Shown here: piece by piece, positions 11,423-37,230 of the stretch
Position numbering within the stretch: the first letter of the stretch is position 1
Layout: each line of letters begins with the position of its first letter
Virus record (IMG/VR): IMGVR_UViG_2571042690_000019
Length of the DNA stretch: 64,000 bases
DNA from: a virus
Lineage: Duplodnaviria > Heunggongvirae > Uroviricota > Caudoviricetes
Strand: one strand, 5' to 3'
The notes under the pieces: generated by a model
Database searches by the model: none
Told to the model about the DNA's origin: nothing
The model's input: only the letters and a program-made list of their open reading frames with translations
Made by a program: the position numbers and the translations under genes

Positions 11423-12046
11423 ATGAAGGATGGTGTAGTGAAGTTAAGGGTTTTAGGGGCCGCGCTCGCGGCTATGTTGGGATGCGTATCTGCTAATACT
11501 GCCAATGCAACTGCGTTACCTGCACAATTCAGGGCAGGGCAGCAGGTTATGAATAACGCTGTTGGGGATCATTCACAAGCGGCCATTATGGACTTTTGCA
11601 AGAGGGAGGGCATTCCATTACGGCCTGTTGGAACTCAGTTTATTGGTAAAACTGACTTTTGCGTTTTTGCATATACAGCATATCTGACGGACAAAGCTAT
11701 AACAAAAACAGGTTATTCAACCAAAGATACTCTTTCCAGATTAAGTCAGGGATGGCAGCAATTCGAAGTGTATCGCCAGCAAGGATTAGGTGAGTTATTG
11801 CAACCACTTTTTATGCTTGCGTTGGTGCCAGAGGGGCAGCAATTTTTGGTTAAAAAGGGAATGCTTCGCCAAAGTGATATTGCCGGGTTCGATAGCATGA
11901 TGGCTTATGAGCGCAAACTAACCGAGCAGCGAAATAAAAAACCATCTGCTTCATGTGTGCAAAGTAAAACAGCAGAATACAGTGCAGTAGCCGGGCCTTT
12001 AGCCAAACAAATGGCAGAGCAATGGTGTAAAAAATACGGGCAATAA
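11423..12046 (+). CDS. secreted/periplasmic hypothetical protein
   Basis: 207 aa with N-terminal signal-peptide-like segment (LGAALAAMLGCVSANTANA). Confidence 0.5.
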   Translation: MKDGVVKLRVLGAALAAMLGCVSANTANATALPAQFRAGQQVMNNAVGDHSQAAIMDFCKREGIPLRPVGTQFIGKTDFCVFAYTAYLTDKAITKTGYSTKDTLSRLSQGWQQFEVYRQQGLGELLQPLFMLALVPEGQQFLVKKGMLRQSDIAGFDSMMAYERKLTEQRNKKPSASCVQSKTAEYSAVAGPLAKQMAEQWCKKYGQ

Positions 12047-12066
12047 GTTACGCAGCGGAGGCAGAA

Positions 12067-12459
12067 TTGAACAGATTGGCTATTGCTTTACTGGCGTCTT
12101 TCCCTTTGATCGCGAGCGCCGGAAATTTACAAGTTAAGTGCGGTCGGTTTGATATAAAAATCTATCCAGATGCCATATTTCTGAATGGGAATAAGGTTGA
12201 TAACGCACACCGAAAAACTGAATCTGACGTAATGAGCTATGTGTTCCAGGAGTATGCGGAGATGGGGGGAACTTACACGCTGTACTCGCTGGATGTTCCT
12301 TCTCGCGGTGATATGACATTATCCCATCAATGGCAGAACGCCGATGGCGAAGCTCTGCGCGAGGTTAAAACAGAAAAATGTGGCACTTTCCATTCTTTTA
12401 AAGGGAAAGCGCCAAATGTTAAATCTGTGCTTGAAAAACAGCGCGCAGGTGAGCTTTAA
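12067..12459 (+). CDS. secreted/periplasmic hypothetical protein
   Basis: 130 aa with signal peptide (MNRLAIALLASFPLIASAG). Confidence 0.5.
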   Translation: MNRLAIALLASFPLIASAGNLQVKCGRFDIKIYPDAIFLNGNKVDNAHRKTESDVMSYVFQEYAEMGGTYTLYSLDVPSRGDMTLSHQWQNADGEALREVKTEKCGTFHSFKGKAPNVKSVLEKQRAGEL

Positions 12460-12767
12460 ACACCTTTAACCACGGAGATGCCGTTCCCTGCACGATAGCT
12501 GCGGGGAACGGAATTCTCCATCAGGTCACGAATTACTCCCGCCTCATGTAGTTCCTCTGTTTCCCAGTATCTGTTTGTCACCAGATCCAGGCTGGCTATG
12601 ACCTTGTGCCGGTCATTCGGCATAGCCAATTTTTCTGCTATAACCATCAGTGAAAACTCTTCATCCAGTAGGATTTGATACCAGACTTTTGCCAGTTCCA
12701 ACTCTCTAATGAGGGTGAAGCGCCGCTCAAGTGTGGCGGCAGAATAAGTGAAATCTATTTTTTTCAT
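12456..12767 (-). CDS. hypothetical protein
   Basis: 103-aa ORF convergent with the secreted-protein pair. Confidence 0.4.
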   Translation of the reverse strand: MKKIDFTYSAATLERRFTLIRELELAKVWYQILLDEEFSLMVIAEKLAMPNDRHKVIASLDLVTNRYWETEELHEAGVIRDLMENSVPRSYRAGNGISVVKGV

Positions 12768-16820: not shown

Positions 16821-17313
16821 AGGTTTAACGCCAGCACAACTGGCAGAGCGTAACGCTGAGTATGTAACGGAAATTTCCCGACTTGAGAAAGAACGCTCGG
16901 CGCTGGCGGCGGAGAATGAACTGGCTCGTAAGGCAGTTCAGGCATTCTGCGATGTTGTTGGCGACAACACCGAGGTTATCGCTGAGGAGGTTGGGCGAGA
17001 TGGCGTTCTGGTTATTTTGGAGGCCATGAAGGCAACAGGAAATATGCCAGCCACCGATGCTTTCCTGGCTGAAATTCGTGCGGAGGCTCGCAACGAGGGG
17101 ATTAACTATACCGCAAGCCGTCTTGCTGCTGCTTTCAACCACGGATTTATCAATAAGTCTTTACGTGAAGTTTTCGACGTTACACGCATGATTCTGTCAG
17201 CGAAAGAAGAGTTGGCTAATGAACCGCACCCGATTGATGGCCTGTCCGGTGAATATGCGGAGAAATCCCTTGAAGAATGGGCGGAACAGATTCGCAAAGG
17301 AGCTGACAAGTGA
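16810..17313 (+). CDS. coiled-coil paralog family member 1
   Basis: 167 aa; family motifs SALAAENELARKA, PATDAFLAEIRAEA, AEQIRKGADK. Confidence 0.5.
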   Translation: MKSEGLTPAQLAERNAEYVTEISRLEKERSALAAENELARKAVQAFCDVVGDNTEVIAEEVGRDGVLVILEAMKATGNMPATDAFLAEIRAEARNEGINYTASRLAAAFNHGFINKSLREVFDVTRMILSAKEELANEPHPIDGLSGEYAEKSLEEWAEQIRKGADK

Positions 17314-17720
17314 AGAAGATGATTTTTGTCGCGGCATTGTTGGTGAATATCCAACAAGTGCATGCTTCAGCAGCTATTGTAGCCTCTACCGCCGCGACTA
17401 CGGCTGCTGTAGCTGCTGCGAACTCTGCGAATATCGCAAACCAACAGGCACAGCGTGCTGCTAATGCATCAGCCAGCGTTCACTCAATCACCATTAAGAG
17501 CAGTAAGCAAAATCTGGGATTCATAACGTGCGGCACGCGTTCTAATGAAGCTGTAGGTTCACTTGGATGTACGGTATATGGGGGTAGTGAGAATAGAGAA
17601 ATTCCATGGAAAACGTGGCCCGGATACGTTCTTGGCTCGAAGCTCCCGGCCAGTTATGAAGTAAACGCCGTATCGTTTGATCACTATAACGGCGTGGCAA
17701 CGGTCTATTTTGCATATTGA
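17310..17720 (+). CDS. small secreted protein
   Basis: 136 aa with signal peptide and Ala/Thr-rich repeat. Confidence 0.45.
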   Translation: MKKMIFVAALLVNIQQVHASAAIVASTAATTAAVAAANSANIANQQAQRAANASASVHSITIKSSKQNLGFITCGTRSNEAVGSLGCTVYGGSENREIPWKTWPGYVLGSKLPASYEVNAVSFDHYNGVATVYFAY

Positions 17721-18514
17721 GGCTCCGCATGAAATTCTCCAAATTTTCTGAGTTGGTGAATCGTATTTTGTCCAACAACCACAGCCATCGTCGCGATATG
17801 GATGTAACGATCGTTGTTCATTCGCCTGGCAGCATTGGTTCAACACCCTCAGTTGAGGTTCAGTCAATTCACGCTGGTTTTGATTGGGATTCCGGGAAAG
17901 TGCTGATTTTCCCAGCACAGCCACTGACCACGCTAACACCAGAACAGATTACTGATATTACTGATAGTGTGCGCAAAGGTCAGTCCTGGCACGCATATCA
18001 GGAATACAAGAAGCATAAAGAGCAGTTGGAAAAATTATCGATTGAACTTGATACCGCAAAACAGCGCATTGCAGAGCTGGAGGGTAATCGCGCGGCGCTG
18101 GCTGCGGAGAATGCGAGACTGAAGGCGATATGTGAGGATCGCCGCACGTTCATTATGAATGGCGTGCAGCTTGGTTTTATCAAGGTGCCAACAGTGGAAA
18201 TAGATCCAGCTCTTGAAACAATTCGTATCGCCCTATCACCACAAAAAACCACTCCTGCGACCGACACTTTCCTAGATGAAGTGAAGACTGAAGCACGCAA
18301 GGAGGGCGCTTACTTTGTGGCGAATAGAATGCTGGCTGCCTGGGAAGCTGGTTTTATTGATGATACTGCGAAGAACGCCGCGGATATTGCCCGGATGATT
18401 CTTACCTCTACTGAGTTTATGGCTAATGCGCGGGAAGGCGATTTTGACCGCTCATTCTCTGATGGTGTTCTCGAAGATATCGCTGAACAGCTTCGCAAAG
18501 GAGGCAGCCAGTGA
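17717..18514 (+). CDS. coiled-coil paralog family member 2
   Basis: 265 aa; AKQRIAELEGNRAALAAENARLKA, PATDTFLDEVKTEARKEG, C-terminal AEQLRKGGSQ overlapping the next GTG start. Confidence 0.5.
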   Translation: MRLRMKFSKFSELVNRILSNNHSHRRDMDVTIVVHSPGSIGSTPSVEVQSIHAGFDWDSGKVLIFPAQPLTTLTPEQITDITDSVRKGQSWHAYQEYKKHKEQLEKLSIELDTAKQRIAELEGNRAALAAENARLKAICEDRRTFIMNGVQLGFIKVPTVEIDPALETIRIALSPQKTTPATDTFLDEVKTEARKEGAYFVANRMLAAWEAGFIDDTAKNAADIARMILTSTEFMANAREGDFDRSFSDGVLEDIAEQLRKGGSQ

Positions 18515-21979: not shown

Positions 21980-21983
21980 TGAG

Positions 21984-22685
21984 GTGGATCAAAAAATGAA
22001 AGAACGCGGGATGATTTTTAACGATGAGATGGTCAGGGCCATCCTCGAAGGAAGGAAGACGCAGACTCGCCGACCTGTAAAAAATGTCAGGGCCGATAAC
22101 TGCCTGGTTATCCGTAAACCGACAAAGAAACGCAATGGTATCTATACCCACGTTATGGATGCACCTGAACATGGTTTATGCCCGTTCGGTAACGTTGGTG
22201 ATCGCATATGGGTCCGTGAGGCGTGGGCGATATTAGGCAATGAGGATGGTTGCAGTGTGGACTGGAACGACAACCTTTGTCGTGGCGATGAGAAGAACGC
22301 AGCAAGGATTTATCGGGCCAGTTGTGAGCAAAAGCCGGGTGATTACGGCTTGTGGTCGATACCCGATGATGCCGACTGGAAACCTCACACTGTGAATGAA
22401 AAATTTGATGGCGGGTGGTGTCCATCAATTCACATGCCGCGCTGGGCATCGCGCATTCTTCTGGAAATTACCAACGTGCGCGTTGAGCGGTTGAACGATA
22501 TCAGCGAATGCGATGCAAGGGCTGAGGGCGCACCAACAGAATCGACCCTCATTGGCGATAAGCATTACCCAAGTTTCCGTAGCCTATGGAAATCAATTTA
22601 TGGCGAAGATAGTTGGAACGCTAATCCTTGGGTGTGGGTAATCGAGTTTAAGCGTATTCAGGGGGCAACCAGTGAGCAAAATTAA
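21984..22685 (+). CDS. putative ASCH-like domain protein
   Basis: 233 aa; N-terminal MIFNDEMVRAILEGRKTQTRRP resembles the ASCH signature from memory; tentative. Confidence 0.35.
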   Translation: MDQKMKERGMIFNDEMVRAILEGRKTQTRRPVKNVRADNCLVIRKPTKKRNGIYTHVMDAPEHGLCPFGNVGDRIWVREAWAILGNEDGCSVDWNDNLCRGDEKNAARIYRASCEQKPGDYGLWSIPDDADWKPHTVNEKFDGGWCPSIHMPRWASRILLEITNVRVERLNDISECDARAEGAPTESTLIGDKHYPSFRSLWKSIYGEDSWNANPWVWVIEFKRIQGATSEQN

Positions 22686-22854
22686 CTATCAAGAACTGCG
22701 CGAGGCGGCGGAACAGGCAACGCAAGATGAATGGGTAGCATATATTTTGCCGGTCATAACGGCATTTATCCTGCGCGCACGTCTGAGGGTAGGCATTGCG
22801 GATACTTTATTGACTGGCCTGGCGTCTGTCAGGGGCGGGAGAGCATCAGCATGA
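22672..22854 (+). CDS. paralog-family N-module small protein
   Basis: 60 aa from GTG; VSKINYQELREAAEQ matches the N-terminus of 23261..23707. Confidence 0.35.
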   Translation: MSKINYQELREAAEQATQDEWVAYILPVITAFILRARLRVGIADTLLTGLASVRGGRASA

Positions 22855-23264
22855 GCATCAGAACCTACGCAGTGAATTGCAATGACGCATGGCTAAACAC
22901 CGAAGGTGATGACATCTCCGGCTCATACGTTAAGTACAAAGACCATCAGGAAGTGGTTGCCGCTCTTGAGGCCAGGTGCGCGGCGCTGGCAGCGGAGAAT
23001 GCGGCGCTTAAACAGTCGGAGAAGGAATTTAATAACTTCTGTCGTCAGGAGTACTACGGTTGGGAGGACAACTTCACGGAAACCCCAGCTACCGACGCTC
23101 TCCTGGCTGAAGTACGTGCGCAGGGGGTGGATATGGCTCGTAACGCGATGATTGATTTTGTTGATGGTGAAGTTGGGCCAAACAAGAACGTTCCGGGGCT
23201 GATTAGAGGCGCAGAGATATGCGTAAGTATTGCTGAACAGCTTCGCGAAGGAGGCAACCAGTGA
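22851..23264 (+). CDS. coiled-coil paralog family member 4 (C-module)
   Basis: Start moved to the ATGA-overlapping ATG; AALAAENAALK, PATDALLAEVRAQG, C-terminal AEQLREGGNQ. Confidence 0.45.
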   Translation: MSIRTYAVNCNDAWLNTEGDDISGSYVKYKDHQEVVAALEARCAALAAENAALKQSEKEFNNFCRQEYYGWEDNFTETPATDALLAEVRAQGVDMARNAMIDFVDGEVGPNKNVPGLIRGAEICVSIAEQLREGGNQ

Positions 23265-23707
23265 GCAAGATTGATTATCAAAAGCTTCGTGAAATCGCTG
23301 AAAAAACAAAAATTGCTGGTGAAGCACCTGTAATGCCTTTCGATCAGCGAATTAATGCGCTTAACGATTTTATGAAGCACTTTTCGCCAGATATCGCGCT
23401 GGCATTGTTGGATGAACGGGAAAGAAACCAGCAATACATCAAACGCCGCGACCAGGAGAACGAGGATATTGCGCTAACGGTAGGGAAGTTGCGCGTTGAG
23501 CTTGAGGCAGAAAAACAGCGGGCAAAGGATCTGTTTATGGAAAATGCTCGGCTTAAGTCAGGTATAGCCGGTCTGATACACCTCGGTATTCGATATGCAG
23601 ATGTTGATGTCATGAAAATTGCTGGAGATGCCCAGCTTTCTACCCCATGCACTGACAGCATCATAAACAGCATTGCAACAGGCATTCGCATCAACGGAGG
23701 TGAGTAG
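23261..23707 (+). CDS. coiled-coil paralog family member 5 (N-module type)
   Basis: 148 aa from GTG; VSKIDYQKLREIAEK...LRVELEAEKQRAKDL. Confidence 0.45.
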   Translation: MSKIDYQKLREIAEKTKIAGEAPVMPFDQRINALNDFMKHFSPDIALALLDERERNQQYIKRRDQENEDIALTVGKLRVELEAEKQRAKDLFMENARLKSGIAGLIHLGIRYADVDVMKIAGDAQLSTPCTDSIINSIATGIRINGGE

Positions 23708-23879
23708 TGCGTGTGGCATGTATTGGCTTGTTACCGTACCCGACTCGTTTTTGGGCTTCTGCGCTAATTGCAAAGCCGTATGTCCTGATGGCTGACAACA
23801 TCATCCCGGCACCAAAGCGCCGCCATACCGGTATTGCAGCGGCACGACGAGCAGCAAAGAGACGCAGGAGAGCAAAGCG

Positions 23880-24056
23880 ATGAAAAACCGTAAGGCAAAA
23901 CGACTTTTTTTACAGCGACCTGTGCGTGTGGTGGAGCTGGTTATTAGCAACCATAAGATAGCGGTACTCCATCCATTTGGTCAGGTGGCTTTTGCCGCAA
24001 AGCGTAAGCCTACTGCGTCACAGAACAGGCGGAAGAAAGGGTACGCTGTAAGATGA
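23880..24056 (+). CDS. small basic protein (tandem paralog 1)
   Basis: 58-aa ORF MKNRKAKRLFLQRP...; the same MKNRKAK N-terminus restarts at 24053. Confidence 0.3.
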   Translation: MKNRKAKRLFLQRPVRVVELVISNHKIAVLHPFGQVAFAAKRKPTASQNRRKKGYAVR

Positions 24057-24241
24057 AAAACCGTAAAGCAAAGATTCTGTTAGTTCGTAGAAACGCTCCT
24101 GGCGTCTGGCAGTGGGTGAGACTCAGCAACCGACGGATGGGGTTGATGAAATATTACGGGATGATGGATTGTGGTTTTTGCAAAAAGCCCAGCGCGGCGC
24201 AAAACCGCTGGAAAAACCACTTGCGCACTAAAGGAGAGTGA
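24053..24241 (+). CDS. small basic Cys-containing protein (tandem paralog 2)
   Basis: 62 aa MKNRKAKILLVRRN...; ATGA overlap with the previous ORF. Confidence 0.3.
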   Translation: MKNRKAKILLVRRNAPGVWQWVRLSNRRMGLMKYYGMMDCGFCKKPSAAQNRWKNHLRTKGE

Positions 24242-24452: not shown

Positions 24453-26065
24453 CCACTATTACCAGAGAACAAGCTCTGAAAATTATTGAGGCAGCCGATG
24501 AGGTTATTAGTGCGCTTGCCGGAACTAACGAGGATGTTCACCCTGGTAGCGATAACATGCTACGCCTGTGGGATGACCTGAATGACCGTTACGCGCCGCC
24601 GGAAGTTGTGCGTGAGCTGGCACGAATTGCACTGGCATCGCTGGAAGCAGAACCAGTTAAACGAGTTAACTCAGATCAGATGCGCCGAGTCTGCTTAGAA
24701 GCTAATCGCCATTTAGATAAATATGACGCGATGGCGAAAGAGGTAAATAAGTTGCTTGGACGCATCGCCCCGCCAGCACCGGTAGTGCCTGAAGAAGCAA
24801 CTCCGGAAAACGTAGAAATGCTCTCTGGCTATGTTTCAACGTACAAATTAACCGATAGCGAGCGCGATATTGCTGCCGAAATATGGAACGCCTGCCGCGC
24901 CGCCATGCTTCAGTCCGGAAACTTTCGGGAAAACAAGAATTCGTCAACCAATAATTTTCGGGAAATCGCGGAAACGTCAACCAGCTATCCGGCAATTCCT
25001 AGTGAGGTGTTGTCCGCAATCCTGAAGGTTGCCAGGATTCGTGCCGATTTCGATGATTTTGACGGTGACAGGCGAGGTATCGGTGATTGTCTGGATGAGG
25101 CCGAGCAAGAGCTTATCGTTACCATTAACAAATATGCCAGTCAGTTGGCAGCAGAACCGATAGCGGCTAATGACGTTCGAGAGCAGCAGACAGCCGTTCC
25201 GCCAGTTCCAGAAATACAGGCTGATGTCGCGCAAGCAATTGAAAATCTCAAGCAGAAGTTAGTGGAATGCAATCGCTATAACTACTGCGCAGATGCAGTT
25301 AAAGGCGTAGAGGATGCCAGCCGCGTCTTGGCACTCCAAAATCAAAATATGTCAGCACCGGTAACGCCGGAGGCCATTGAAAACGCAATTGAATATATCC
25401 GCAGTATCGCTTTTCACATCGATGAAGACGATTACCACGGCAAGCATATTGCGTATTTCATGCGACAAGCATTGGCCTGGCTGGAAGGGCATTCATGCAG
25501 CGACGACAGGCTGGGTAAGGCCGACAATCAACCCGCATCTGGTAACCAGGCTGCCGAATCCAATCGCGGTAATGAGTGGACCGGCAATCCTGATATTGAT
25601 AACGCCATCATCATGCTCGACCGCATAGATACGGCGGAAAGTTGCGATGATGACCGTATTGAGGCCGTTAAGGCTGTGTTGCGTAGACTGGCAGGCAACT
25701 ATCCGGATATTCCGGATAGTTCGGTGCCAGCGCCAGGAAAGGGCGTCACCGGTGAACGTATCCGCATTAAGCCGCATGTTTATCGCGAACTGGTTAACCG
25801 TCTCCACGATACAGCGATCAAGTGTGCTGGCACCCAGCAATTACGAGAAAGAATTAGCCGTGTTTTGGGCGACGTTATTACACCAGATCATCATAAACAA
25901 GCCGAGAAAAGTGGCCTGGAAAGGTGTCGCCTTGAGGCGGCATTAAACATTAAGCCGGGGCATACGCTTGGCATTATTGATGCACTATTGGTTCATAAGA
26001 TGGCCAGGGCTTTATTGCCGCTGGTGGCTGAAAAGCATGAGGTGGACCATGCCAACGAAAGCTGA
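24449..26065 (+). CDS. large hypothetical protein (538 aa)
   Basis: Long ORF; C-terminal KPHVYRELVNRLHDTAIKCAGTQQLRERISR is shared with 15856..16506. Confidence 0.5.
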   Translation: MTTITREQALKIIEAADEVISALAGTNEDVHPGSDNMLRLWDDLNDRYAPPEVVRELARIALASLEAEPVKRVNSDQMRRVCLEANRHLDKYDAMAKEVNKLLGRIAPPAPVVPEEATPENVEMLSGYVSTYKLTDSERDIAAEIWNACRAAMLQSGNFRENKNSSTNNFREIAETSTSYPAIPSEVLSAILKVARIRADFDDFDGDRRGIGDCLDEAEQELIVTINKYASQLAAEPIAANDVREQQTAVPPVPEIQADVAQAIENLKQKLVECNRYNYCADAVKGVEDASRVLALQNQNMSAPVTPEAIENAIEYIRSIAFHIDEDDYHGKHIAYFMRQALAWLEGHSCSDDRLGKADNQPASGNQAAESNRGNEWTGNPDIDNAIIMLDRIDTAESCDDDRIEAVKAVLRRLAGNYPDIPDSSVPAPGKGVTGERIRIKPHVYRELVNRLHDTAIKCAGTQQLRERISRVLGDVITPDHHKQAEKSGLERCRLEAALNIKPGHTLGIIDALLVHKMARALLPLVAEKHEVDHANES

Positions 26066-27759: not shown

Positions 27760-28139
27760 TGAGGCATATATCACCGGAAGAACTTATTGCGCTTCATGAT
27801 GCGAATATAAGCCGCTACGGCGGCCTGCCGGGAATGTCAGATCCGGGTAGGGCAGAGGCCATTATCGGGAGAGTTCAGGCCAGAGTTGCCTACGAAGAGA
27901 TCACCGACCTTTTCGAAGTCTCCGCCACCTACCTGGTGGCTACGGCGAGAGGGCATATATTCAATGATGCCAATAAGCGTACCGCGCTAAACAGTGCGCT
28001 GCTATTTCTACGCCGTAACGGTATACAGGTATATGATTCTCCCGTGCTGGTGGAACTTGCGGTGGGGGCCGCAACTGGTGAAATCCCCGTATCTTCAGTA
28101 GCGGAAAAACTACGTGAATTATTTGGTTCCAATATTTGA
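27759..28139 (+). CDS. doc: Doc toxin (Fic-fold kinase)
   Basis: 126 aa [39 protein letters not shown]...[19 protein letters not shown]; overlaps phd stop. Confidence 0.9.
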
Positions 28140-28174
28140 AAAGAAGCCCGCTCAACCAGGCGGGCTTCCTACTA

Positions 28175-29269
28175 TCACTCAATGATTTTTTCTGCTGTCA
28201 GCCAGCTAATTTCTTGCCTGTCTTTCGGCGGTTTTAGCATGTGGGCGTATTCAGCGACATTCTCCCACGAAATTGTTTTTGCCCACTCAACGATAGCATT
28301 GTGATCTGCAGTGAAGAGTGGAATGGTGTGCGATTTCAACCATTCTAATGTCGTGACGCCATGTTTTTTGGCGTGGTGCTGCGCATGATGCCGGGCTATC
28401 ACTCGTAATGGTATTGTCCATTCACTACCATCAGGCATCGAAAAGCGCATTGTCTTCGGCATATCTGATTCAAGAACAGCCTCCCTAATACCAGGGAACT
28501 CACCAAGAATCATACGACGATAGTCATCACTATTTCGCCCGCCATACCTTTCGGCAAAATGATCAAGATATTCTTGGGTAATAAATGGTGAATCCTCCGC
28601 ACTCAGCTTAATGGCTTTATATACACCACTCGGATTATCTTCAGCTAAAGCACGTCCATGATGTGAATCATAAAAAAAGCCTATTTCCTCTGGTGACGGA
28701 ATTGAAGTGAGCAATATGCGTGAATCACCACTAGTCATGCTTGCCCACACAATGCTGTATGCCTGATCGCTGATATGTGCGGAATCCACAATAATGAATA
28801 AAAGATGGTCGGCGTAGTGACCTGCAATGCTATCTTCATAGTTAAGGCGGAAGTTACAAAAGCACATTCCCCAAAATTCATTGAACATCAGACCGCTATC
28901 ACCGACCTTAAAATACTCAATGATAAAAGGTTGTTTTTTCAGCAATGCCTCCCAACATTGCCACACATATGCAACAATTCCTCTTTTGCAAACATTTGAT
29001 TTTGGATAAACAATTACTGTCCGGGAATCAGGATACATAATCGTATAAAGGGTACTAATAACAGCAAGCACTTGCGGTCGTCCGATCCCATACGGAGTGG
29101 TGACAGTAGCTTTTGCATTATTGGGCTGTATAGCTTCAACAATTTGTTGTTGCTGGTGGCTTAAATCAATATCAAACAATTCTTTTGCTGCCAGTACCCA
29201 ATTGTCTTTATATTTCTCCACCAGCGACAGCCAGCGCGGATCTTTATAAATATTGCTCTTAGTCGCCAT
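28175..29269 (-). CDS. terminase large-subunit (PacB) paralog with degenerate ATPase motifs
   Basis: Start moved to internal ATG (MATKSNIYKDPRW). Aligns with pacB at 34358..35866 but Walker A is PYGIGRP (vs GHGTGKS) and Walker B FIIVDSA (vs LILDEAS). Confidence 0.5.
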   Translation of the reverse strand: MATKSNIYKDPRWLSLVEKYKDNWVLAAKELFDIDLSHQQQQIVEAIQPNNAKATVTTPYGIGRPQVLAVISTLYTIMYPDSRTVIVYPKSNVCKRGIVAYVWQCWEALLKKQPFIIEYFKVGDSGLMFNEFWGMCFCNFRLNYEDSIAGHYADHLLFIIVDSAHISDQAYSIVWASMTSGDSRILLTSIPSPEEIGFFYDSHHGRALAEDNPSGVYKAIKLSAEDSPFITQEYLDHFAERYGGRNSDDYRRMILGEFPGIREAVLESDMPKTMRFSMPDGSEWTIPLRVIARHHAQHHAKKHGVTTLEWLKSHTIPLFTADHNAIVEWAKTISWENVAEYAHMLKPPKDRQEISWLTAEKIIE

Positions 29270-30026
29270 CTGCCACTTCCTTAACTTCTTCTTTGGCCTG
29301 TTCTGCAATCGCCGCACGGCATTTCGCCCTGGCTGTAGCGATTGCTTCAGCTCGCACATCGTCTGGAATCGTTGACGTGATATACATATCCAGTTCTTCG
29401 GCACGGAATACTGTTTGGTCCAGATATTCGCGTAGCATCCAGGTAAATTCGAAATCACACGCGATAATCTCTGCGCTACCTTCTGCACCATTTGGGAAAT
29501 GAATAAATGCCTGTTTAGCCAAACCGATAACACGACATGCGGTTGCCAAAACAGCGACAACCAGGTTTACATTTTCACACGCTACGGGCTGGTTAACGCC
29601 GGAGATTACTCCATTTAACTGTCGGTTATATGGAAGGTAGTTTGAGATGCGTTCTACGCGCCATGTGCCAGTCAGGCTGCCATTTTTAAATATAATTGGT
29701 GTAACGGATAGCCCAAGCTCGCGTATAAGTCGTTGCGCTATAGCAGGATCATTAAACAGGTCTAATGCTACACATTCGAAAGACTGCGCAAGGGCAAACA
29801 GTTCTTCCAGAGAGTAGTCTTTGCCCCTGGCGGTGATGTAACGACGAACGCCGCTGTCTGCATCACTCCATATAGCTACGCCATGCTCTTCATTCAGCTC
29901 TTCATTAAAGCCGAGATACGTCATGATAGTGCGTTCAATCGTGTCAAACGGCAGTGACATGTCGGCGTTAACAGCCACCAGCAGGCCATTACGCAAGCGG
30001 TATTGAATTGTTTTAGTGCTTTCCAT
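29259..30026 (-). CDS. hypothetical protein
   Basis: 255-aa ORF in the same minus-strand operon. Confidence 0.45.
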   Translation of the reverse strand: MESTKTIQYRLRNGLLVAVNADMSLPFDTIERTIMTYLGFNEELNEEHGVAIWSDADSGVRRYITARGKDYSLEELFALAQSFECVALDLFNDPAIAQRLIRELGLSVTPIIFKNGSLTGTWRVERISNYLPYNRQLNGVISGVNQPVACENVNLVVAVLATACRVIGLAKQAFIHFPNGAEGSAEIIACDFEFTWMLREYLDQTVFRAEELDMYITSTIPDDVRAEAIATARAKCRAAIAEQAKEEVKEVADGD

Positions 30027-30487: not shown

Positions 30488-30982
30488 TTATAACTTTTCG
30501 TACTGAAGCGGTGAACGCTTAATTTCAAAGTGGCCTTCCGATGTGCTACCAAAGCCACCAGCACCACGCTCCGTTTCGTTGAGTTCCTCAACCTCGACTA
30601 GTGAGACTTGTTCAACACGCTCAAAAATTCCTTGCATGACAGCCATTCCAGGCTTGAGACAAACGCCTTCCCCGCCTGGATCAGTAATCAGTTTTGCCAT
30701 GATTTCGCCGCGATAATCGGAGTCGATAATTCCTACGCAGTTAGCCAGGCGAGTATGTTTTTTGCAGCCCAATCCTGATCGCGGATAGAGTTTCAGACAC
30801 CAGCCGGGCGGGATCTCCATAGCCAGTCCGGTATACACCCACCAGCTTGAGGAAATTGCACCATTGCTATCGACGCATGGTTTTATTTCAACAGCCTCAA
30901 AATCCATCGCCGCCGATCCGGAGGTGGCATAAGCTGGAAGTTTTGCTGCCGGATGTAGGCGTTTCACTTTTACGTAAATCAT
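30488..30982 (-). CDS. dut: dUTP diphosphatase
   Basis: Trimeric dUTPase motifs: RSGLG, GIIDSDYRGE, RGAGGFGSTS. Confidence 0.8.
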   Translation of the reverse strand: MIYVKVKRLHPAAKLPAYATSGSAAMDFEAVEIKPCVDSNGAISSSWWVYTGLAMEIPPGWCLKLYPRSGLGCKKHTRLANCVGIIDSDYRGEIMAKLITDPGGEGVCLKPGMAVMQGIFERVEQVSLVEVEELNETERGAGGFGSTSEGHFEIKRSPLQYEKL

Positions 30983-31455
30983 TGTTTTTTAGCTCTCTGC
31001 GTGAAGGTGTAAACCCGACGTTTGATATGTGGAACGGTAGGAACAGGAAGACAGGAACTTTCAATAACTCCTTGCTCCTCCAGCGATCGCACCGCCCGCA
31101 AGAACTGCGACGTGTCGCCGCCAAACTGGCGGGCATAGGTGCTGCCGTTATGAAGTATTTGAGCTATTACCCGAGCTTTTGTCTGGCTGTCACGATATGC
31201 GAATAGCCGCACGGCCTCTTCTGGCGCAATCGCTAACTGATAGCCTTTCCCGGCACGGTGTCGAATGAATCCATGCGCCAGTAGGTTTTTGAGTTCGTTA
31301 CGAGTGCGAACAGATCCGTAACCCAGGAAGTGTGGATTGATAACGACTGGCTTAAACCATTCCGTAGGTGCTTTAGCTAATAGAGCTAACAGCTTCCCGG
31401 ATAATTCTGGATAGGAAGACGGGTAACAATTCAGAGATGGGTAATAAGTTTTCAC
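30979..31455 (-). CDS. hypothetical protein
   Basis: 158-aa ORF; start overlaps upstream stop. Confidence 0.4.
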   Translation of the reverse strand: MKTYYPSLNCYPSSYPELSGKLLALLAKAPTEWFKPVVINPHFLGYGSVRTRNELKNLLAHGFIRHRAGKGYQLAIAPEEAVRLFAYRDSQTKARVIAQILHNGSTYARQFGGDTSQFLRAVRSLEEQGVIESSCLPVPTVPHIKRRVYTFTQRAKKQ

Positions 31456-31796
31456 CGACGCCCCCTTGCAGGATATCGACCGGCATTAGTATCCGGTGCA
31501 ATAAAGCCGGTAGTGGGGCGAGTGAAAGCGAGATTAATCTTCTCGACCATAGTGCGATAATTTTCCTGATAGTGGGCCAGGAGTTTTTCGGCGGCAATGA
31601 TGGTTACTTTCCGGACGTAGCTTTCTGCTTCCTCCAGATTTCGCCAGTTTTTTTCGAGGGTAAACACAGGGACGGCCTCAAGCCCGGTCATGATGCCGAA
31701 CACAACGACAGCATGACTGTTCTTAACACCAGCGGCGAAGGTTACGGTGTAACCATCCACCTTGAAGCGTCTTGATTCCGTGATTTGACTCTGCAA
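31452..31796 (-). CDS. hypothetical protein (first gene after operator, downstream of cre)
   Basis: 114-aa ORF. Confidence 0.4.
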   Translation of the reverse strand: MQSQITESRRFKVDGYTVTFAAGVKNSHAVVVFGIMTGLEAVPVFTLEKNWRNLEEAESYVRKVTIIAAEKLLAHYQENYRTMVEKINLAFTRPTTGFIAPDTNAGRYPARGRR

Positions 31797-31850
31797 AGCA
31801 CCCTCCTAAATAGGCGAGGGTACTTTACAGCAAAGGCGTTAATCTAAAAA

Positions 31851-31870
31851 GATGTGTTAGAATTTTAATT
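31851..31870. promoter_or_regulatory. C1-operator-like site between cre and downstream operon
   Basis: gatgtgttagaattttaatt. Confidence 0.4.
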
Positions 31871-32898
31871 TACGAATCCATCAGGCGGCTATTAGCCCCC
31901 ACAGACACGCCGCCACGGCGAAGATACCGCATAAGTGTTTCCGGTTTCTTCCAGGTTCCTTCCTGCATGATCTCCACCATAGACACCTGCTTTTCAGCCA
32001 TATCAATAGCGGCCCCGACGCGTGCACTATGCCCAGTCCACGTCCGGTATCTTCCTTTGTTTGGCGTAGCATCTCTTTTATTCAGCAACACCCAGGCGTC
32101 GCTGAATATTTTCTCCATTGCAGGTGCAGTAAGGGGCGTTGTCGTAATCCTGGCCTTATTGCTACGGTGTATCGGCGGGAACAGCACCGCGTCAGGATGT
32201 TCACGAAGCCCGGAAACATCCAGCCAGTCATTCAGCACAGCAGTAGTGCGACGGGAAAGCACCTTATCAAGCCCGGCGGCGGTCGTTATTGTCTTCGTGT
32301 GTGAAATATGTAGCGTGACAGTGTCACCTGTTTGGTCCAGATCTCCTACACGAATACGCGAGATTTCCGACATACGCATCAGCGTATTGTATGCAACAAA
32401 GAGAAAAGCCCGGTTGCGCTGGTCCACCAGCCGTTCTGACCTGGACAGCAGGACGTCGAGCAGTTTCAGGTCGTCCCACCGCAACGGTATAGCCTGGCCT
32501 GTTCGCTCGCCTTTTTCCGTTGCCGCTTCACGCCGGATGCGCCGCATGGCCAGAGACACACTTTTATCGTCCGACAGCGGCGGGAGGCCACATTGCGAAA
32601 GCAGCATGTTAAGCATGGCATAGTGCTTATCAATGGTGGTCGAAGCCAGATCAGCATCATGCAGCTGAAGAAAATACTCGCGGGCCATCTCTGGTGAGAT
32701 CGGGAACCAGGCGAGCTGGCGAGCGTGACACCATCTCGCCCAGGAGTGAAACACTAACCGGAGATCGCGCAAAGTATTCGGCGCGTAAGCCCCCTGGTCA
32801 TTCATGAACCGCATAAAGTTTTCTGCGGCCTCCTGGTACTCTTTGCCAATGTTGCGCAGAAAACCACCGGAGCTGCCAGAGATAATTAATTTACTCAT
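31870..32898 (-). CDS. cre: Cre-like tyrosine recombinase
   Basis: 342 aa (P1 Cre is 343 from memory); aligns by eye along its length (WFPISPEMAREYF, AVSLAMRRIRRE, AYNTLMRMSEISRIRVGDL, GHSARVGAAIDMA, catalytic-Tyr region TLMRYLR). Confidence 0.8.
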   Translation of the reverse strand: MSKLIISGSSGGFLRNIGKEYQEAAENFMRFMNDQGAYAPNTLRDLRLVFHSWARWCHARQLAWFPISPEMAREYFLQLHDADLASTTIDKHYAMLNMLLSQCGLPPLSDDKSVSLAMRRIRREAATEKGERTGQAIPLRWDDLKLLDVLLSRSERLVDQRNRAFLFVAYNTLMRMSEISRIRVGDLDQTGDTVTLHISHTKTITTAAGLDKVLSRRTTAVLNDWLDVSGLREHPDAVLFPPIHRSNKARITTTPLTAPAMEKIFSDAWVLLNKRDATPNKGRYRTWTGHSARVGAAIDMAEKQVSMVEIMQEGTWKKPETLMRYLRRGGVSVGANSRLMDS

Positions 32899-33049
32899 GA
32901 AACTATTTAACCTCTATATACAGATGACGCTACGCGAAAAATATAAAAATGACAGGGTAGCTATAAGTTAATTTTCAAGATTCAAGCCTTTGATCCGAGG
33001 CACGTATTTTCAGTGATGTCAACACTGATCATCTACCCATGATTATAGC

Positions 33050-33083
33050 CTAACTTTAAATAATGCCAATTATTTAAAGTTAT
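33050..33083. other. lox-like recombination site (13-bp inverted arms, 8-bp asymmetric spacer)
   Basis: cTAACTTTAAATA-ATGCCAAT-TATTTAAAGTTAT; arms match at 12 of 13 positions; compare loxP ATAACTTCGTATA-GCATACAT-TATACGAAGTTAT; about 150 bp upstream of cre. Confidence 0.6.
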
Positions 33084-33180
33084 AAAATGCCGATTTTTTT
33101 TAATCCATCATAGATTGATGATGACCAGTAACACGTTGCCTTCATGGTCTTTAATTTGCGAAGTGTGGTTTCTACGGTTG

Positions 33181-33197
33181 GTTTTCTAAAATTGATG
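33181..33197. promoter_or_regulatory. C1-operator-like variant
   Basis: gttttctaaaattgatg, TTCTAAAA variant. Confidence 0.25.
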
Positions 33198-33259
33198 ACA
33201 AAAAATCACAGTTCGATCCTTTACTCACTCTGTTATTCGACATAAATTTGTCATAGTAA

Positions 33260-33280
33260 TTTTATGTTAGAAAACTAAAT
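33260..33280. promoter_or_regulatory. C1-operator-like site overlapping promoter of 33293 gene
   Basis: ttttatgttagaaaactaaat. Confidence 0.45.
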
Positions 33281-33292
33281 CGAGTAGGAATA

Positions 33293-34330
33293 ATGAGTAA
33301 GAAGTCGATCGAGAAAGAGTACAAACGGTTCCTGCAAACCGCTGAACGGTGGAAAGAGCTGGTGGTCGCAAACTCTGTTTTCCATGATACCAGTTATGCT
33401 GGCGAGGAATTCCGCCATGTTGCATTAACGCATGACCAAAACATATTAGAAGAAGCTGAAAAATGTCTTGCTGAATGGAAAGCCTTCGTTGACATGTGCC
33501 GCGATGCCGACGGCAAAGCGTCGAACATTGTTGAGTCTGTATATTCTCCGATCCCATTCATCATTGAGGACACCAATCAAAGCACGCATGTCGTTGTGCA
33601 AAGCGCTACAACAACACGTACATTTACACGTGAACAATTGCTAAAAAAATACGACAAAATCATAAAGAAAAGCCTTAAAAATAGGGTTTTTTCTCAAATC
33701 GTAGGTGATCTTGAAGAAGAACAGCGCTTCTTTGAAGCTGAGCCTGAAGGCGAGATCTACCGGGCGCGTAAAGAGGCATATACAGATGTTGTGCTGACAA
33801 CAAACATCGAAGGCAGCAATGCCCTTTCTCGCTTTAGAGTTGGCGCACATGGTGCATTGGTTTTCGCAAGACTACCGAAGACAACGATCCCCGTTGTCAA
33901 TAATGTTGGTGAACGCCGGAGCATTACAATTTATTCTGGCGTCGAATCGGTACCTTGCAGCCTTCTCGGCGATTTTAACTTATATCGTGTTCGTGACCTG
34001 GAAAAACACCAGCCAAGCTATGTTGCGAAGTCGTACATCTTAAGGAACATCGATATTCGCAATGAAAGCCTTAAGCAGAAATCCGCTAAGATGCTGGAGG
34101 ATGCCGATCCGGCTATTCGCCATATCATTGAGCGTAAGATACGTACATCACGTGAAGCAATGGCAAGGCTGGATAAAATGGATCTGGAATTGTTAGACGT
34201 AATGATGGCCTCTGGAGACGACCTGACCGGCATTAAACTGAATGAAGCTCGTAAAAAATACGGCAAAGCAATCGAAGAACGTTACGGATACACATTCCCC
34301 CAAACGCAGTACGCCGCGAAGCTCTGGTAA
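33293..34330 (+). CDS. hypothetical protein; candidate primary repressor (C1-like) by position only
   Basis: 345-aa ORF with an operator in its own promoter, divergent from cre/lox and convergent with pacB, as c1 is in P1. No sequence-level recognition. Confidence 0.3.
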   Translation: MSKKSIEKEYKRFLQTAERWKELVVANSVFHDTSYAGEEFRHVALTHDQNILEEAEKCLAEWKAFVDMCRDADGKASNIVESVYSPIPFIIEDTNQSTHVVVQSATTTRTFTREQLLKKYDKIIKKSLKNRVFSQIVGDLEEEQRFFEAEPEGEIYRARKEAYTDVVLTTNIEGSNALSRFRVGAHGALVFARLPKTTIPVVNNVGERRSITIYSGVESVPCSLLGDFNLYRVRDLEKHQPSYVAKSYILRNIDIRNESLKQKSAKMLEDADPAIRHIIERKIRTSREAMARLDKMDLELLDVMMASGDDLTGIKLNEARKKYGKAIEERYGYTFPQTQYAAKLW

Positions 34331-34357: not shown

Positions 34358-35866
34358 TTATATATCCAGATCCGGCATTTCGATATCCGCCAGAACCTGA
34401 TCTCGGAAAGTTGCCATTTCGGCACCAATATCTTCATTAGCAGGCACATAGTCCACCAGCATAGTGAAGCAGTAGGTATCCCATCGGTCAGGCGATTTGA
34501 TGTTTAGCTTTTGCCGCATGTGCTCTTTGCGCATCATCGCCATTTTCCCTTCTTCATTCAGTAAAAAGGGGATTTTTGACGCTTGCTCTGCCGTTTTAGG
34601 GTCACTGTCTATCCGCATACGCCCTGACTTTATGGCATCACGCGCCATAATGTTTGCGTAGGCACGCTGATTAACAAATCGCTCCCTGTCTTTGTTCGCA
34701 AACATGGGTTTTCCCCACCGAATACGTACCGGGTTCGCACCACGACGCACCAACTGCGCACACGTATCAGAACCAAAACCATCAGCATCAACCGCGATTG
34801 TTATATTCGGGTATTTTTCCGGCGTACATTCGTTATATATGAAGTCAGCAAAGGCCAATGGGTCCATAGTGCCAGGCATCTCCATTACCTTAAAGTTAAC
34901 AACGCGCCGCTTATCCCTGTGACCTGATACCTTGCAGATGTTGAGGACCGACTTATCTCGCCCATTACCAACGTCAGCCGTTGCCACCCATCCCCAGTTT
35001 TTCTCCAACAACACCTTGCGGCGAGCAGAGCGATCGCATTCATCACGACCAAGCAAATAGCCGTTAATTTCTCGTGGGAACTGACCAAGCACCTTGACCA
35101 TGTACTCAATAGAATCGCGCCCACCATATTCCAGAAGCTTCTCCTTGATGAATTGTGGTGTGACGAACGGTGATTCTTCCGAGTTAAGAACAATTGCTGT
35201 CCAGATCCCTTTCGGGTTGTCTGGGGTTTTTGCTCGAGAATGGTGCGAATCGTAGAAATAACCACTTGGCCTTGTTGGCTGGGATAGCATCAACATCCGG
35301 TTATCTTCTTCAGTAAGAGCACCGGTCATTACGCCGATCGCCTTATCAGATATACCAGATGCTTCATCCAGAATTAGAAGCAAATGTGCCGCGTGTTCCC
35401 CCGCCAGCGCTTCTTCGTTGCCGAGTCGATAACCTTTGCAGAGAACTTCCCAAATCCCCTTACGGGAGCGCTCATAAAACATGGTGTCAGAGAGGACAAA
35501 ATAGGTCTGCAACCACCCATGACGCTTAACTGCATTCGCCCAATACTGTTTAACGTATTTGAATACGCCTGTTTTTACCTGGCCTATCTTGTTAGCAACA
35601 ATGATGACACGGGCATCGGGGAACAGGATCATAAAAATCAACAGCAACATCGCGGTAAGGGACGACTTCCCCGTTCCGTGTCCGGACGTGACGGTCGTCC
35701 TACTCCCCGTTTCCTGCACTGACTGAATGATCTGCTGCTGCTGGTGGGAGGGGAACATCCCAAAAATATCGACTACAGCCTGGGTAAAGTTGTAGCGGTA
35801 TTTGATTACCATATCGCGCCAGCGTGGATCGCTGGTGACGCATTTAATCTTGCGCCCGCCAGCCAT
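34358..35866 (-). CDS. pacB: terminase large subunit
   Basis: 502 aa; Walker A GHGTGKSSL, Walker B LILDEASG; directly downstream of pacA. Confidence 0.7.
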   Translation of the reverse strand: MAGGRKIKCVTSDPRWRDMVIKYRYNFTQAVVDIFGMFPSHQQQQIIQSVQETGSRTTVTSGHGTGKSSLTAMLLLIFMILFPDARVIIVANKIGQVKTGVFKYVKQYWANAVKRHGWLQTYFVLSDTMFYERSRKGIWEVLCKGYRLGNEEALAGEHAAHLLLILDEASGISDKAIGVMTGALTEEDNRMLMLSQPTRPSGYFYDSHHSRAKTPDNPKGIWTAIVLNSEESPFVTPQFIKEKLLEYGGRDSIEYMVKVLGQFPREINGYLLGRDECDRSARRKVLLEKNWGWVATADVGNGRDKSVLNICKVSGHRDKRRVVNFKVMEMPGTMDPLAFADFIYNECTPEKYPNITIAVDADGFGSDTCAQLVRRGANPVRIRWGKPMFANKDRERFVNQRAYANIMARDAIKSGRMRIDSDPKTAEQASKIPFLLNEEGKMAMMRKEHMRQKLNIKSPDRWDTYCFTMLVDYVPANEDIGAEMATFRDQVLADIEMPDLDI

Positions 35867-37230
35867 TAATCATCCTCCGGCGGTTCTATCGCGATATCAT
35901 CATCTCCGGCGTCATACCCTGCATCAGATGCATCATAATCACCGTAAATTTCAGCCGTTGCCGAAGGGTCAATATCCAGCTCTTCGTCGTTGGCCTCGAA
36001 TTCTCCAGCTTTACGCTCGCCATTGCGGTCGTAATCTCCGCACCCCAATTCTTCAACAATGGTTGCCACATCCGCCCGGCGCTCTGCCAGCCATTGCGGA
36101 TGGTTAGCCTGAAGCGTTGCAAACTCCCTTGCCTCTTTGTCCAGCTGTTCATCATCAACATCATTGACGTCAGAAACAGGTGGTTCGAGAAGAGTGATAG
36201 CTTTCGCCGCGCGCGCCGCGAGGATAGCCGGGACGCTGACACCCTGGCGCTCGATGTATTCAGCAACACCGATATCATCCAGTTCCTCGCGCTCACGCAT
36301 ACGTATAGCGGCGGCGATAACTCTGGCTGCGCGTGCGTCAGCGCCAATGCGATATTCAATCTCTTTGCCACGCTGTTCGGCCTGTAGGCGTGCTAATTCG
36401 AGTTTTTCTCTGGCCTCAGCCTCTTTGAATGCTTGCTGGCGAGCGCTCTGACGAAGCTTTTCATCCCCCTGTCGCAGCTTTTGTTCGGACTGATATATAG
36501 CTGCCAACCTACTGATAAAATCATTCATGTAGTAGGCCGCGTCACTGATTAGACCGAGAAGGCGCTGCCCAGGGTGCATTCCTTCTGGCTCTTTATCGCC
36601 CAAGGCGTCTATTTCCGCCTGTAGACGTTCGGCCTCCTGATCAACAATGCTTTGATACTGAAGTGCGCGCTCTTGCGCCATTTGAATTGCTAACCGCAGG
36701 TGTTCTTCTGCGCCGTTCTTCATCATATCGCGAGCCACATTCGTAGTTGGCAATGTGGCACGCTGCACAGCACCGTCAGGGATCATTGCAGAAGATCCCT
36801 CAATTTTTGGGGCGTTTTTATCTTCTTCGGGGATCATTTTCGCCATTTTTTCGCGCAATGATCTCCTGACAGATTCTTTTATCTCATTGTTATTATTTGA
36901 ATTATTTTCATGATCCGAAGTTTTCTTTCTCGGCATACTTCGGAAAGAACCTGCGCCCTGCGAATTGTCAATTTCTGTAAATTTTGTTTTTTCTGCACCC
37001 TCTTCCAGCTTTTTTGTTGCTCTTCCCGCCCGTTTTTTTTCAGGTGATTTGGTGCTTTTTTTTGTTGTCTTTACCTGCGACCGCACCTCATTTTTTTTCA
37101 TATTGAGATGCTTTCTGGCTGTATTGAAGCTAAGGCCATGCTCCTCACAGTATTCCTTTACAGTGATCCCTTTTTCTTCACGCAACGCTATAAAGCGGGC
37201 GCGGTGCTCCTCCCAATTAACCAGACTCAT
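35866..37230 (-). CDS. pacA: terminase small subunit / pac-recognition protein
   Basis: 454 aa; N-terminal HTH-like region, long charged middle, acidic tail; position upstream of pacB; contains a GATC cluster. Confidence 0.55.
   Translation of the reverse strand: MSLVNWEEHRARFIALREEKGITVKEYCEEHGLSFNTARKHLNMKKNEVRSQVKTTKKSTKSPEKKRAGRATKKLEEGAEKTKFTEIDNSQGAGSFRSMPRKKTSDHENNSNNNNEIKESVRRSLREKMAKMIPEEDKNAPKIEGSSAMIPDGAVQRATLPTTNVARDMMKNGAEEHLRLAIQMAQERALQYQSIVDQEAERLQAEIDALGDKEPEGMHPGQRLLGLISDAAYYMNDFISRLAAIYQSEQKLRQGDEKLRQSARQQAFKEAEAREKLELARLQAEQRGKEIEYRIGADARAARVIAAAIRMREREELDDIGVAEYIERQGVSVPAILAARAAKAITLLEPPVSDVNDVDDEQLDKEAREFATLQANHPQWLAERRADVATIVEELGCGDYDRNGERKAGEFEANDEELDIDPSATAEIYGDYDASDAGYDAGDDDIAIEPPEDD
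36781..36915. other. candidate pac site (GATC-hexamer cluster inside pacA)
   Basis: Five GATC within 135 bp, each in a TGATC(C/T) hexamer on one strand or the other; P1 pac is a TGATC(A/G) hexamer cluster inside pacA, from memory. Confidence 0.25.

Follow-up and report, generated by a model that had tools for sequence, protein, structure and literature searches.

When a gene for a Cre-like tyrosine recombinase lies beside a short inverted repeat, two questions arise: whether the repeat is the target of the recombinase, and whether the two together form a new system or one that has already been described. Both are raised by a locus in the 64-kb stretch of viral DNA analysed here in its entirety (referred to below as the window), where a preliminary description had picked out a lox-like site next to a Cre homologue and proposed that the pair, if orthogonal to Cre/loxP, might provide a useful new tool. 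From the comparisons set out below, the site is almost certainly rox, the target of the recombinase Dre, and the element that carries it is a natural D6-like phage-plasmid from Enterobacteriaceae. The pair is already known: Dre/rox dates from 2004 and has since served as a standard orthogonal tool in genome engineering.

Sequence and symmetry of the site

Direct reading of the window sequence gives cTAACTTTAAATAATGCCAATTATTTAAAGTTAT at positions 33050-33083. These 34 bp had been described as 13-bp arms, symmetric at 12 of 13 positions, around an 8-bp spacer, some 150 bp upstream of the Cre-like gene, and every one of these details holds: the sole mismatch between the arms is the outermost pair (c33050/T33083), and 152 bp separate the left edge of rox from the start codon (ATG, 32898) of the Cre-like open reading frame (ORF). 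A better parse, returned by a repeat finder as repeat I2, nonetheless consists of perfect 14-bp arms separated by the 4-bp spacer GCCA (Table 1); the 13-8-13 reading is the DNA of this 14-4-14 core with one base added on each side. Within the 64-kb window, this is the only perfect inverted repeat with 14-nt arms and a gap of 0-10 nt, and no equivalent repeat appeared in 20 shuffles. The rox 32-mer is likewise present as a single copy in the window, even with up to 3 mismatches allowed (0 expected by chance).

Table 1. Coordinates in the window of the features of the dre–rox locus and of the neighbouring genes
Feature	Position	Strand	Basis
dut, orf3-like and orf2-like genes, downstream of dre	30488..31796	-	D6 gene order
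dre allele, Cre-family tyrosine recombinase, 342 aa	31870..32898	-	339/342 identical to D6 Dre (AAV84949)
Putative σ70 promoter directed towards dre	33042..33069	-	11/12 consensus match; prediction only
rox, Dre target, 32 bp, TAACTTTAAATAAT-GCCA-ATTATTTAAAGTTA	33051..33082	.	Identical to AY753669 misc_recomb and to the roxP oligonucleotide
Left 14-bp arm, Dre monomer binding element, dre-proximal	33051..33064	+	Perfect inverted repeat I2
Octamer ATGCCAAT, probable crossover region, functionally equivalent to the loxP spacer	33063..33070	+	PMC4777119 mutagenesis; cleavage positions presumed
4-bp asymmetric centre GCCA, sets site direction	33065..33068	+	Published as 4-bp spacer
Right 14-bp arm, second Dre binding element	33069..33082	-	Perfect inverted repeat I2
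c1-like prophage repressor gene, divergent from dre	33293..34330	+	D6 synteny and annotation
pacB terminase gene	34358-35866	-	D6 annotation
pacA terminase gene	35866-37230	-	D6 annotation

The published layout of rox is also one of 14-bp inverted repeats with a 4-bp spacer. When the centre of rox was randomized, however, the bases just outside this 4-bp spacer were found to govern compatibility, in the manner of loxP positions 2 and 7 (PMC4777119); in the octamer ATGCCAAT, it is again positions 2 and 7 that control the compatibility of one rox site with another (PMC4777119). This supports a functional crossover region of 8 bp, with cleavage presumably at the positions equivalent to those in loxP. 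The 8-bp spacer originally proposed thus departs from the published 14-4-14 layout and yet coincides exactly with the mutagenesis-backed octamer at 33063-33070.

A 24-nt direct repeat (33051-33074 and 33075-33098, 75% identical) was considered as a further element of the locus; it occurs only where the flank is of the D6 type, other lineages having different sequence there, and was treated as non-functional.

Identity with Dre/rox of phage D6

A megablast search of phage records with the region 31800-33300 returned Escherichia phage D6 (96%), and the D6 features under the match are annotated as 'dre: tyrosine recombinase', 'region of crossover (rox) site for Dre recombinase' and 'c1'. The site itself, TAACTTTAAATAATGCCAATTATTTAAAGTTA, is identical at 32 of 32 positions to the rox misc_recomb feature of AY753669, and the same 32-mer is, again base for base (32/32), the wild-type roxP oligonucleotide printed in PMC4777119. 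The whole intergenic region between dre and c1 is 99% identical to that of D6, with no difference inside rox, and the gene order dut–orf3–orf2–dre–rox–c1–pacB–pacA is common to both.

The similarity extends well beyond the locus. Of the 64 kb of the window, 55 kb are collinear with D6, at 87-99% identity, over a span that runs in D6 coordinates from ~61.3 kb, through the origin of the record (which was set inside rox), to ~31.6 kb. Site sequence, orthologous recombinase, catalytic residues and genomic context all agree with a Dre/rox system of the D6 type, the context being a rox in the dre–c1 interval, ~150 bp upstream of dre and next to pacB/pacA, in a P1/D6-like phage-plasmid. Since site, protein, gene order and collinearity all match D6, we take the window to be a natural D6-like phage-plasmid and the locus to be its Dre/rox module. 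That the repeat is a lox-like target of the adjacent Cre homologue is therefore borne out, with a site matching D6 rox at 32/32 positions and a protein 99% identical to Dre; the preliminary interpretation was right in substance because the pair is Dre/rox itself, and for the same reason its suggestion of a new tool does not stand, this tool having been described in 2004 and being widely used.

Membership of the Cre/loxP system proper can be set aside: the loxP sequence is not matched, and the recombinase, which is 41% identical to Cre of phage P1, is a homologue and not Cre. Dre was first identified in phage D6, as a Cre homologue with rox, and not loxP, as its substrate (Sauer & McDermott 2004, as cited in later papers). 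Recombination by D6 Dre at rox has been documented in E. coli, B. subtilis and mammalian cells. In E. coli, both excision and integration at the 32-mer are efficient, with no cross-reaction with the sites of Cre, VCre and Vika; in B. subtilis, Dre and Cre are strictly orthogonal; and Dre/rox is routinely combined with Cre/loxP in mice, zebrafish, cell lines and bacteria. The orthogonality that had been raised as a possibility was thus published for D6 Dre two decades ago, and the window allele, judging by its sequence, should be heterospecific with respect to Cre/loxP as well.

The recombinase allele

The ORF at 31870-32898 contains a Pfam Phage_integrase domain and its product matches the Cre chains in the PDB (E = 2e-68). 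Over its full length, the protein is 99.1% identical to D6 Dre, from which it differs by E3K, H102Q and L160Q (that is, K3, Q102 and Q160 in the window). The six catalytic residues – R175, K202, H290, R293, W316 and Y325, in the numbering of PMC4777119 – are all present in the window protein, and the K3/Q102/Q160 allele would be expected to be active.

It might still be asked whether the pair is a decayed copy, with the site intact and the recombinase disabled by private substitutions. Three differences from D6 Dre do exist, one of which (L160Q) puts a polar residue in place of a hydrophobic one; in a site-by-site comparison with eight alleles from D6 and plasmids, K3 and Q160 were both absent. 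We nevertheless consider inactivation improbable: the reading frame is full-length, the catalytic residues are complete, 339 of 342 residues are those of D6 Dre, an identical Dre protein is encoded by an independent viral contig (L014), and Q102 is shared with another lineage (L007).

Natural variation among relatives

Relatives of the locus are numerous. The dre–rox region is found in 144 PLSDB plasmids – 118 from Escherichia, 16 from Salmonella, nine from Shigella and one from Enterobacter – that are mostly ~90 kb in size and non-mobilizable, as well as in 124 of 5426 complete E. coli genomes. Relatives were sampled across identity tiers, and 23 loci came from a scan of viral contigs in which both arms were required and the spacer was left free. 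Wherever the contig reaches far enough, a Dre homologue lies ~150 bp from the site, and always in one orientation.

The site is conserved out of proportion to its surroundings. In three plasmids (L003, L004 and L007), rox is intact at 32/32 positions, despite recombinases that are 90-94% identical to that of the window and 60-bp flanks that are 30-70% identical; in L018, whose Dre homologue is 70% identical, all 28 arm positions are kept around a GCTA centre. Loss of the repeat from relatives that keep the recombinase, which the preliminary description had named as evidence against its reading, was looked for among these relatives, and the repeat was found to be kept.

Across the 30 rox-bearing sequences scored (29 loci and the window), the left arm is invariant in 29, the exception being L005, with a change from A to G at position 3. 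The only kind of natural variant seen in the right arm is T to C at its sixth base, which occurs in L005 and L008. Three further centres were encountered: GCTA (L018, 3706-3737), CCCC (L025, 12405-12436) and ACTA (L005, 2706-2737), the last in a Shigella dysenteriae plasmid whose site combines the altered centre with one change in each arm. Conservation ends at the edges of the 32-bp core: most diverged relatives have G at the position of T33083, and the left flank varies too, so that the two bases by which the 34-bp reading exceeds the core, one at the outer end of each 13-bp arm, are not conserved.

Variation is thus concentrated in the 4-bp centre; the AT on either side of this centre, within the octamer, and nearly all 28 arm positions are fixed, a pattern that fits arms recognized by the protein and a centre whose only requirement is to match that of its partner. 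The centre variants of L018, L025 and L005 may accordingly form separate compatibility classes, although the CCCC centre of L025 could be a sequencing error. Small as it is, this picture of natural variation in rox offers, in its spacer variants, a minor lead for those who engineer rox sites. One further record, L006 (pSa1423-90k), has a disrupted right arm and was left out of the variants; being only 88% identical overall and carrying no full-length recombinase annotation, it probably contains sequencing indels.

Strongly conserved blocks of the dre–c1 intergenic region were also observed outside rox, at 32899-32990 (for instance GACGCTACGCGAAAAA...TGACAGGGTAG, next to the start of dre) and at 33215-33240 (for instance GATCCTTTACTCAC, upstream of c1). 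They are kept even in the lineage with 70% identity and may represent regulatory elements or operators.

Copy number and the question of integration

The site had been put forward as marking a place of either dimer resolution or integration, with a second copy to be sought in the host genome and in the rest of the element. No such copy was found: rox is single in the window, and the bare 32-mer occurs once in each of 94 E. coli genomes, in 91 of them on a plasmid that is almost always ~90 kb in size.

For rox to be an attP-like site, the recombinase would have to insert the element at a matching chromosomal site. Cre can integrate P1, at low frequency, at a chromosomal pseudo-lox site, and three of the 127 matches to the dre–rox region in E. 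coli genomes are chromosomal. These three copies, however, are intact 32-mers, whereas integration through rox would leave hybrids of half-sites; none of the 94 genomes holds a second target; and the carriers are circular plasmids of ~90 kb with replication and partition genes of their own. A search of 185,579 species-representative genomes for the rox arms with a free spacer likewise gave no real match, its one hit being an unrelated AT-rich palindrome. With no partner site seen in the host chromosome, we regard an attP-like function as very improbable indeed. Of the two roles first suggested, integration is thus left unsupported, because each E. coli genome has a single rox and no chromosomal partner for it, whereas resolution agrees with the role that Dre/rox would be expected to play: the copy number fits the resolution of plasmid multimers and the cyclization of infecting DNA, not chromosomal integration.

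The palindrome just mentioned belongs to a Clostridia metagenome-assembled genome (OZ007016.1; L012, 6381-6412), in which both arms are perfect and the centre reads TAAT. The palindrome is perfect and flanked by A and T runs, in a locus of 24% G+C that contains no Dre homologue, and was rejected as a chance match or an AT-rich bidirectional terminator-type palindrome.

The three complete E. coli chromosomes that carry the dre–rox region with an intact rox would imply D6-like elements that were integrated by a route other than rox recombination.

A putative promoter overlapping rox

A consensus scan of the dre–c1 intergenic region picked out one promoter-like site, a predicted σ70 promoter on the dre strand. 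Its -35 element (TTGGCA, 33069..33064) lies inside rox, where it is the reverse complement of the spacer and the first bases of the right arm, and its -10 element (TATAAT, 33047..33042) lies three bases outside the left arm, the two being separated by a 16-nt spacer. On both strands of the 64 kb, this is the only match of at least 11/12; shuffles of the whole window (128 kb, both strands) gave a mean of 0.8 such matches, and the expectation for the dre strand of the 394-bp dre–c1 spacer is ~0.0025. Of the 30 scored sequences (29 loci and the window), 28 have a perfect TATAAT, among them the diverged L004 and L018; the -10 element is weakened in L003 (CATGAT) and L005 (TGTAAT). As many of these loci are near-identical, the number of independent lineages is only ~5, of which three have a perfect -10 element.

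A promoter at rox is not annotated in either D6 GenBank record (AY753669 and MF356679). In P1, the cre promoters P1cre to P3cre lie between lox and cre, and P4cre lies just upstream of lox and reads through it; there is thus no annotated cre promoter inside lox, in contrast to the predicted -35 element inside rox in the window. Our tentative suggestion, which we would put at rather less than an even chance, is that the centre of rox doubles as the -35 element of the main dre promoter and that bound Dre would shut off its own transcription. The rox-embedded promoter may already have been noted in the 2004 description of Dre. If the suggestion were true, autorepression by Dre would keep the recombinase at a low level in the plasmid prophage, and changes of the spacer (GCTA, CCCC and ACTA) would alter partner compatibility and dre expression together. 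The overlap is a minor lead both for rox engineers and for studies of phage-plasmid maintenance.

The same observations might be turned into a quite different reading, in which the repeat is mainly transcriptional – an operator, a promoter or a hairpin terminator between dre and c1 – and its likeness to lox is incidental; besides the near-consensus promoter that overlaps the repeat, a T-run ~10 bp to its right in most relatives would speak for this. Yet the stem has a single G:C pair per arm and fails a terminator scan, and a promoter role could add to a recombination role without replacing it. What decides the matter is that the exact 32-mer is recombined by Dre in plasmids and genomes unrelated to D6: its function as a recombination target is established because Dre acts on it when it is moved into unrelated DNA. 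A purely transcriptional repeat is accordingly hardly credible.

Mechanism and role in the life cycle

With rox taken as the recombination target of Dre, recombination would be expected to begin with the binding of one Dre monomer to each inverted arm, after which two Dre-bound rox sites would synapse to form a tetramer. Tyr325 would then cleave one pair of strands within the central ATGCCAAT region, exchange of these strands would proceed by way of a Holliday junction, and exchange of the other pair would follow. The asymmetric GCCA centre would give rox its direction; because the centre is directional, two directly repeated copies would be resolved by excision.

As for the purpose of such recombination in nature, the roles of Dre/rox in D6-like elements may be modelled on those of Cre/lox in P1. 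There, Cre/lox keeps the plasmid prophage monomeric, hence stably inherited, and for D6-like plasmid prophages, too, multimer resolution has been assigned to the recombinase and its site by authors who named them Cre and lox. By this analogy, Dre/rox would convert plasmid multimers into monomers for stable segregation, and would probably also circularize infecting linear DNA, terminally redundant and with rox at both ends.

The second of these roles involves the place at which packaging starts. In P1, pac sits within pacA, ~4 kb from lox; in the window, pacA is ~3-4 kb from rox. By homology with P1, the start of packaging should fall within pacA, at a distance of roughly 3-4 kb from rox; this would be compatible with a rox that lies within the terminal redundancy and serves cyclization. 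A P1-type pac, that is, a cluster of TGATCA/G hexamers, was sought in pacA; there was no cluster and only one hexamer, so the D6-type pac must differ from that of P1.

A mosaic backbone

Around the conserved module, ~9 kb of the window have no counterpart in D6. The segments that D6 lacks (1147-2587, 11481-12502, 16919-18488, 21982-23249, 23511-24189, 24453-25197 and 28130-29285) are mosaic accessory regions, in which most ORFs belong to no Pfam family.

An observation of a different kind concerns the terminase genes. An ORF of ~362 aa on the minus strand (28175-29263), inside the last of these segments and with no Pfam match, encodes a protein that is 37% identical to amino acids 10-264 of the window's own PacB (E = 6e-57). 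It corresponds to the N-terminal ATPase half of PacB without the C-terminal half, in place of which there is an unrelated tail of ~100 aa, and both of its Walker motifs look degenerate (Walker A, TPYGIGRP compared with SGHGTGKS; Walker B, FIIVDSA compared with LILDEAS). The product could be a decoy or a regulatory paralogue of the terminase. Near the start of the window, also on the minus strand, a fused methylase of 735 aa (316-2523) joins an N-terminal C5-cytosine methylase domain to a C-terminal D12-class N6-adenine methylase domain; at the place of this fusion, separate cytosine and adenine methylase genes are annotated in D6.

Comparison with known systems

As a discovery, the locus adds little to a system known since 2004. 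What it does illustrate is that a genuine functional pair of recombinase and site can be recognized from raw sequence alone.

The closest comparison is with D6 itself, where site and gene order are the same, the recombinase is 99.1% identical and the intergenic region 99% identical; the window differs by the three amino-acid substitutions in Dre and by its mosaic backbone, with the truncated PacB paralogue and the fused methylase. Cre/loxP of P1 is a more distant relative, which resembles Dre/rox in enzyme family and catalytic residues, in having inverted arms around an asymmetric centre and in lying beside c1 and pac genes. The likeness would extend, for the window by analogy, to a role in multimer resolution and cyclization. 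At the level of the site, loxP (ATAACTTCGTATA-ATGTATGC-TATACGAAGTTAT) and the window sequence are identical at 22 of 34 positions, with differences at three (right arm) or four (left arm) of the 13 arm positions, just as the preliminary description had stated in calling the arms similar to those of loxP. The two systems nonetheless differ in symmetry, 14-4-14 for rox against 13-8-13 for loxP, and in P1 the cra gene stands between lox and cre.

Further afield, the pairs VCre/VloxP, SCre/SloxP, Vika/vox, Nigri/nox and Panto/pox share with Dre/rox the same general plan: a tyrosine recombinase with a nearby lox-like site of its own specificity. These other Cre-like pairs are far more distant from the pair described here, Vika, for instance, being 23% identical to Dre and vox 33% identical to rox.
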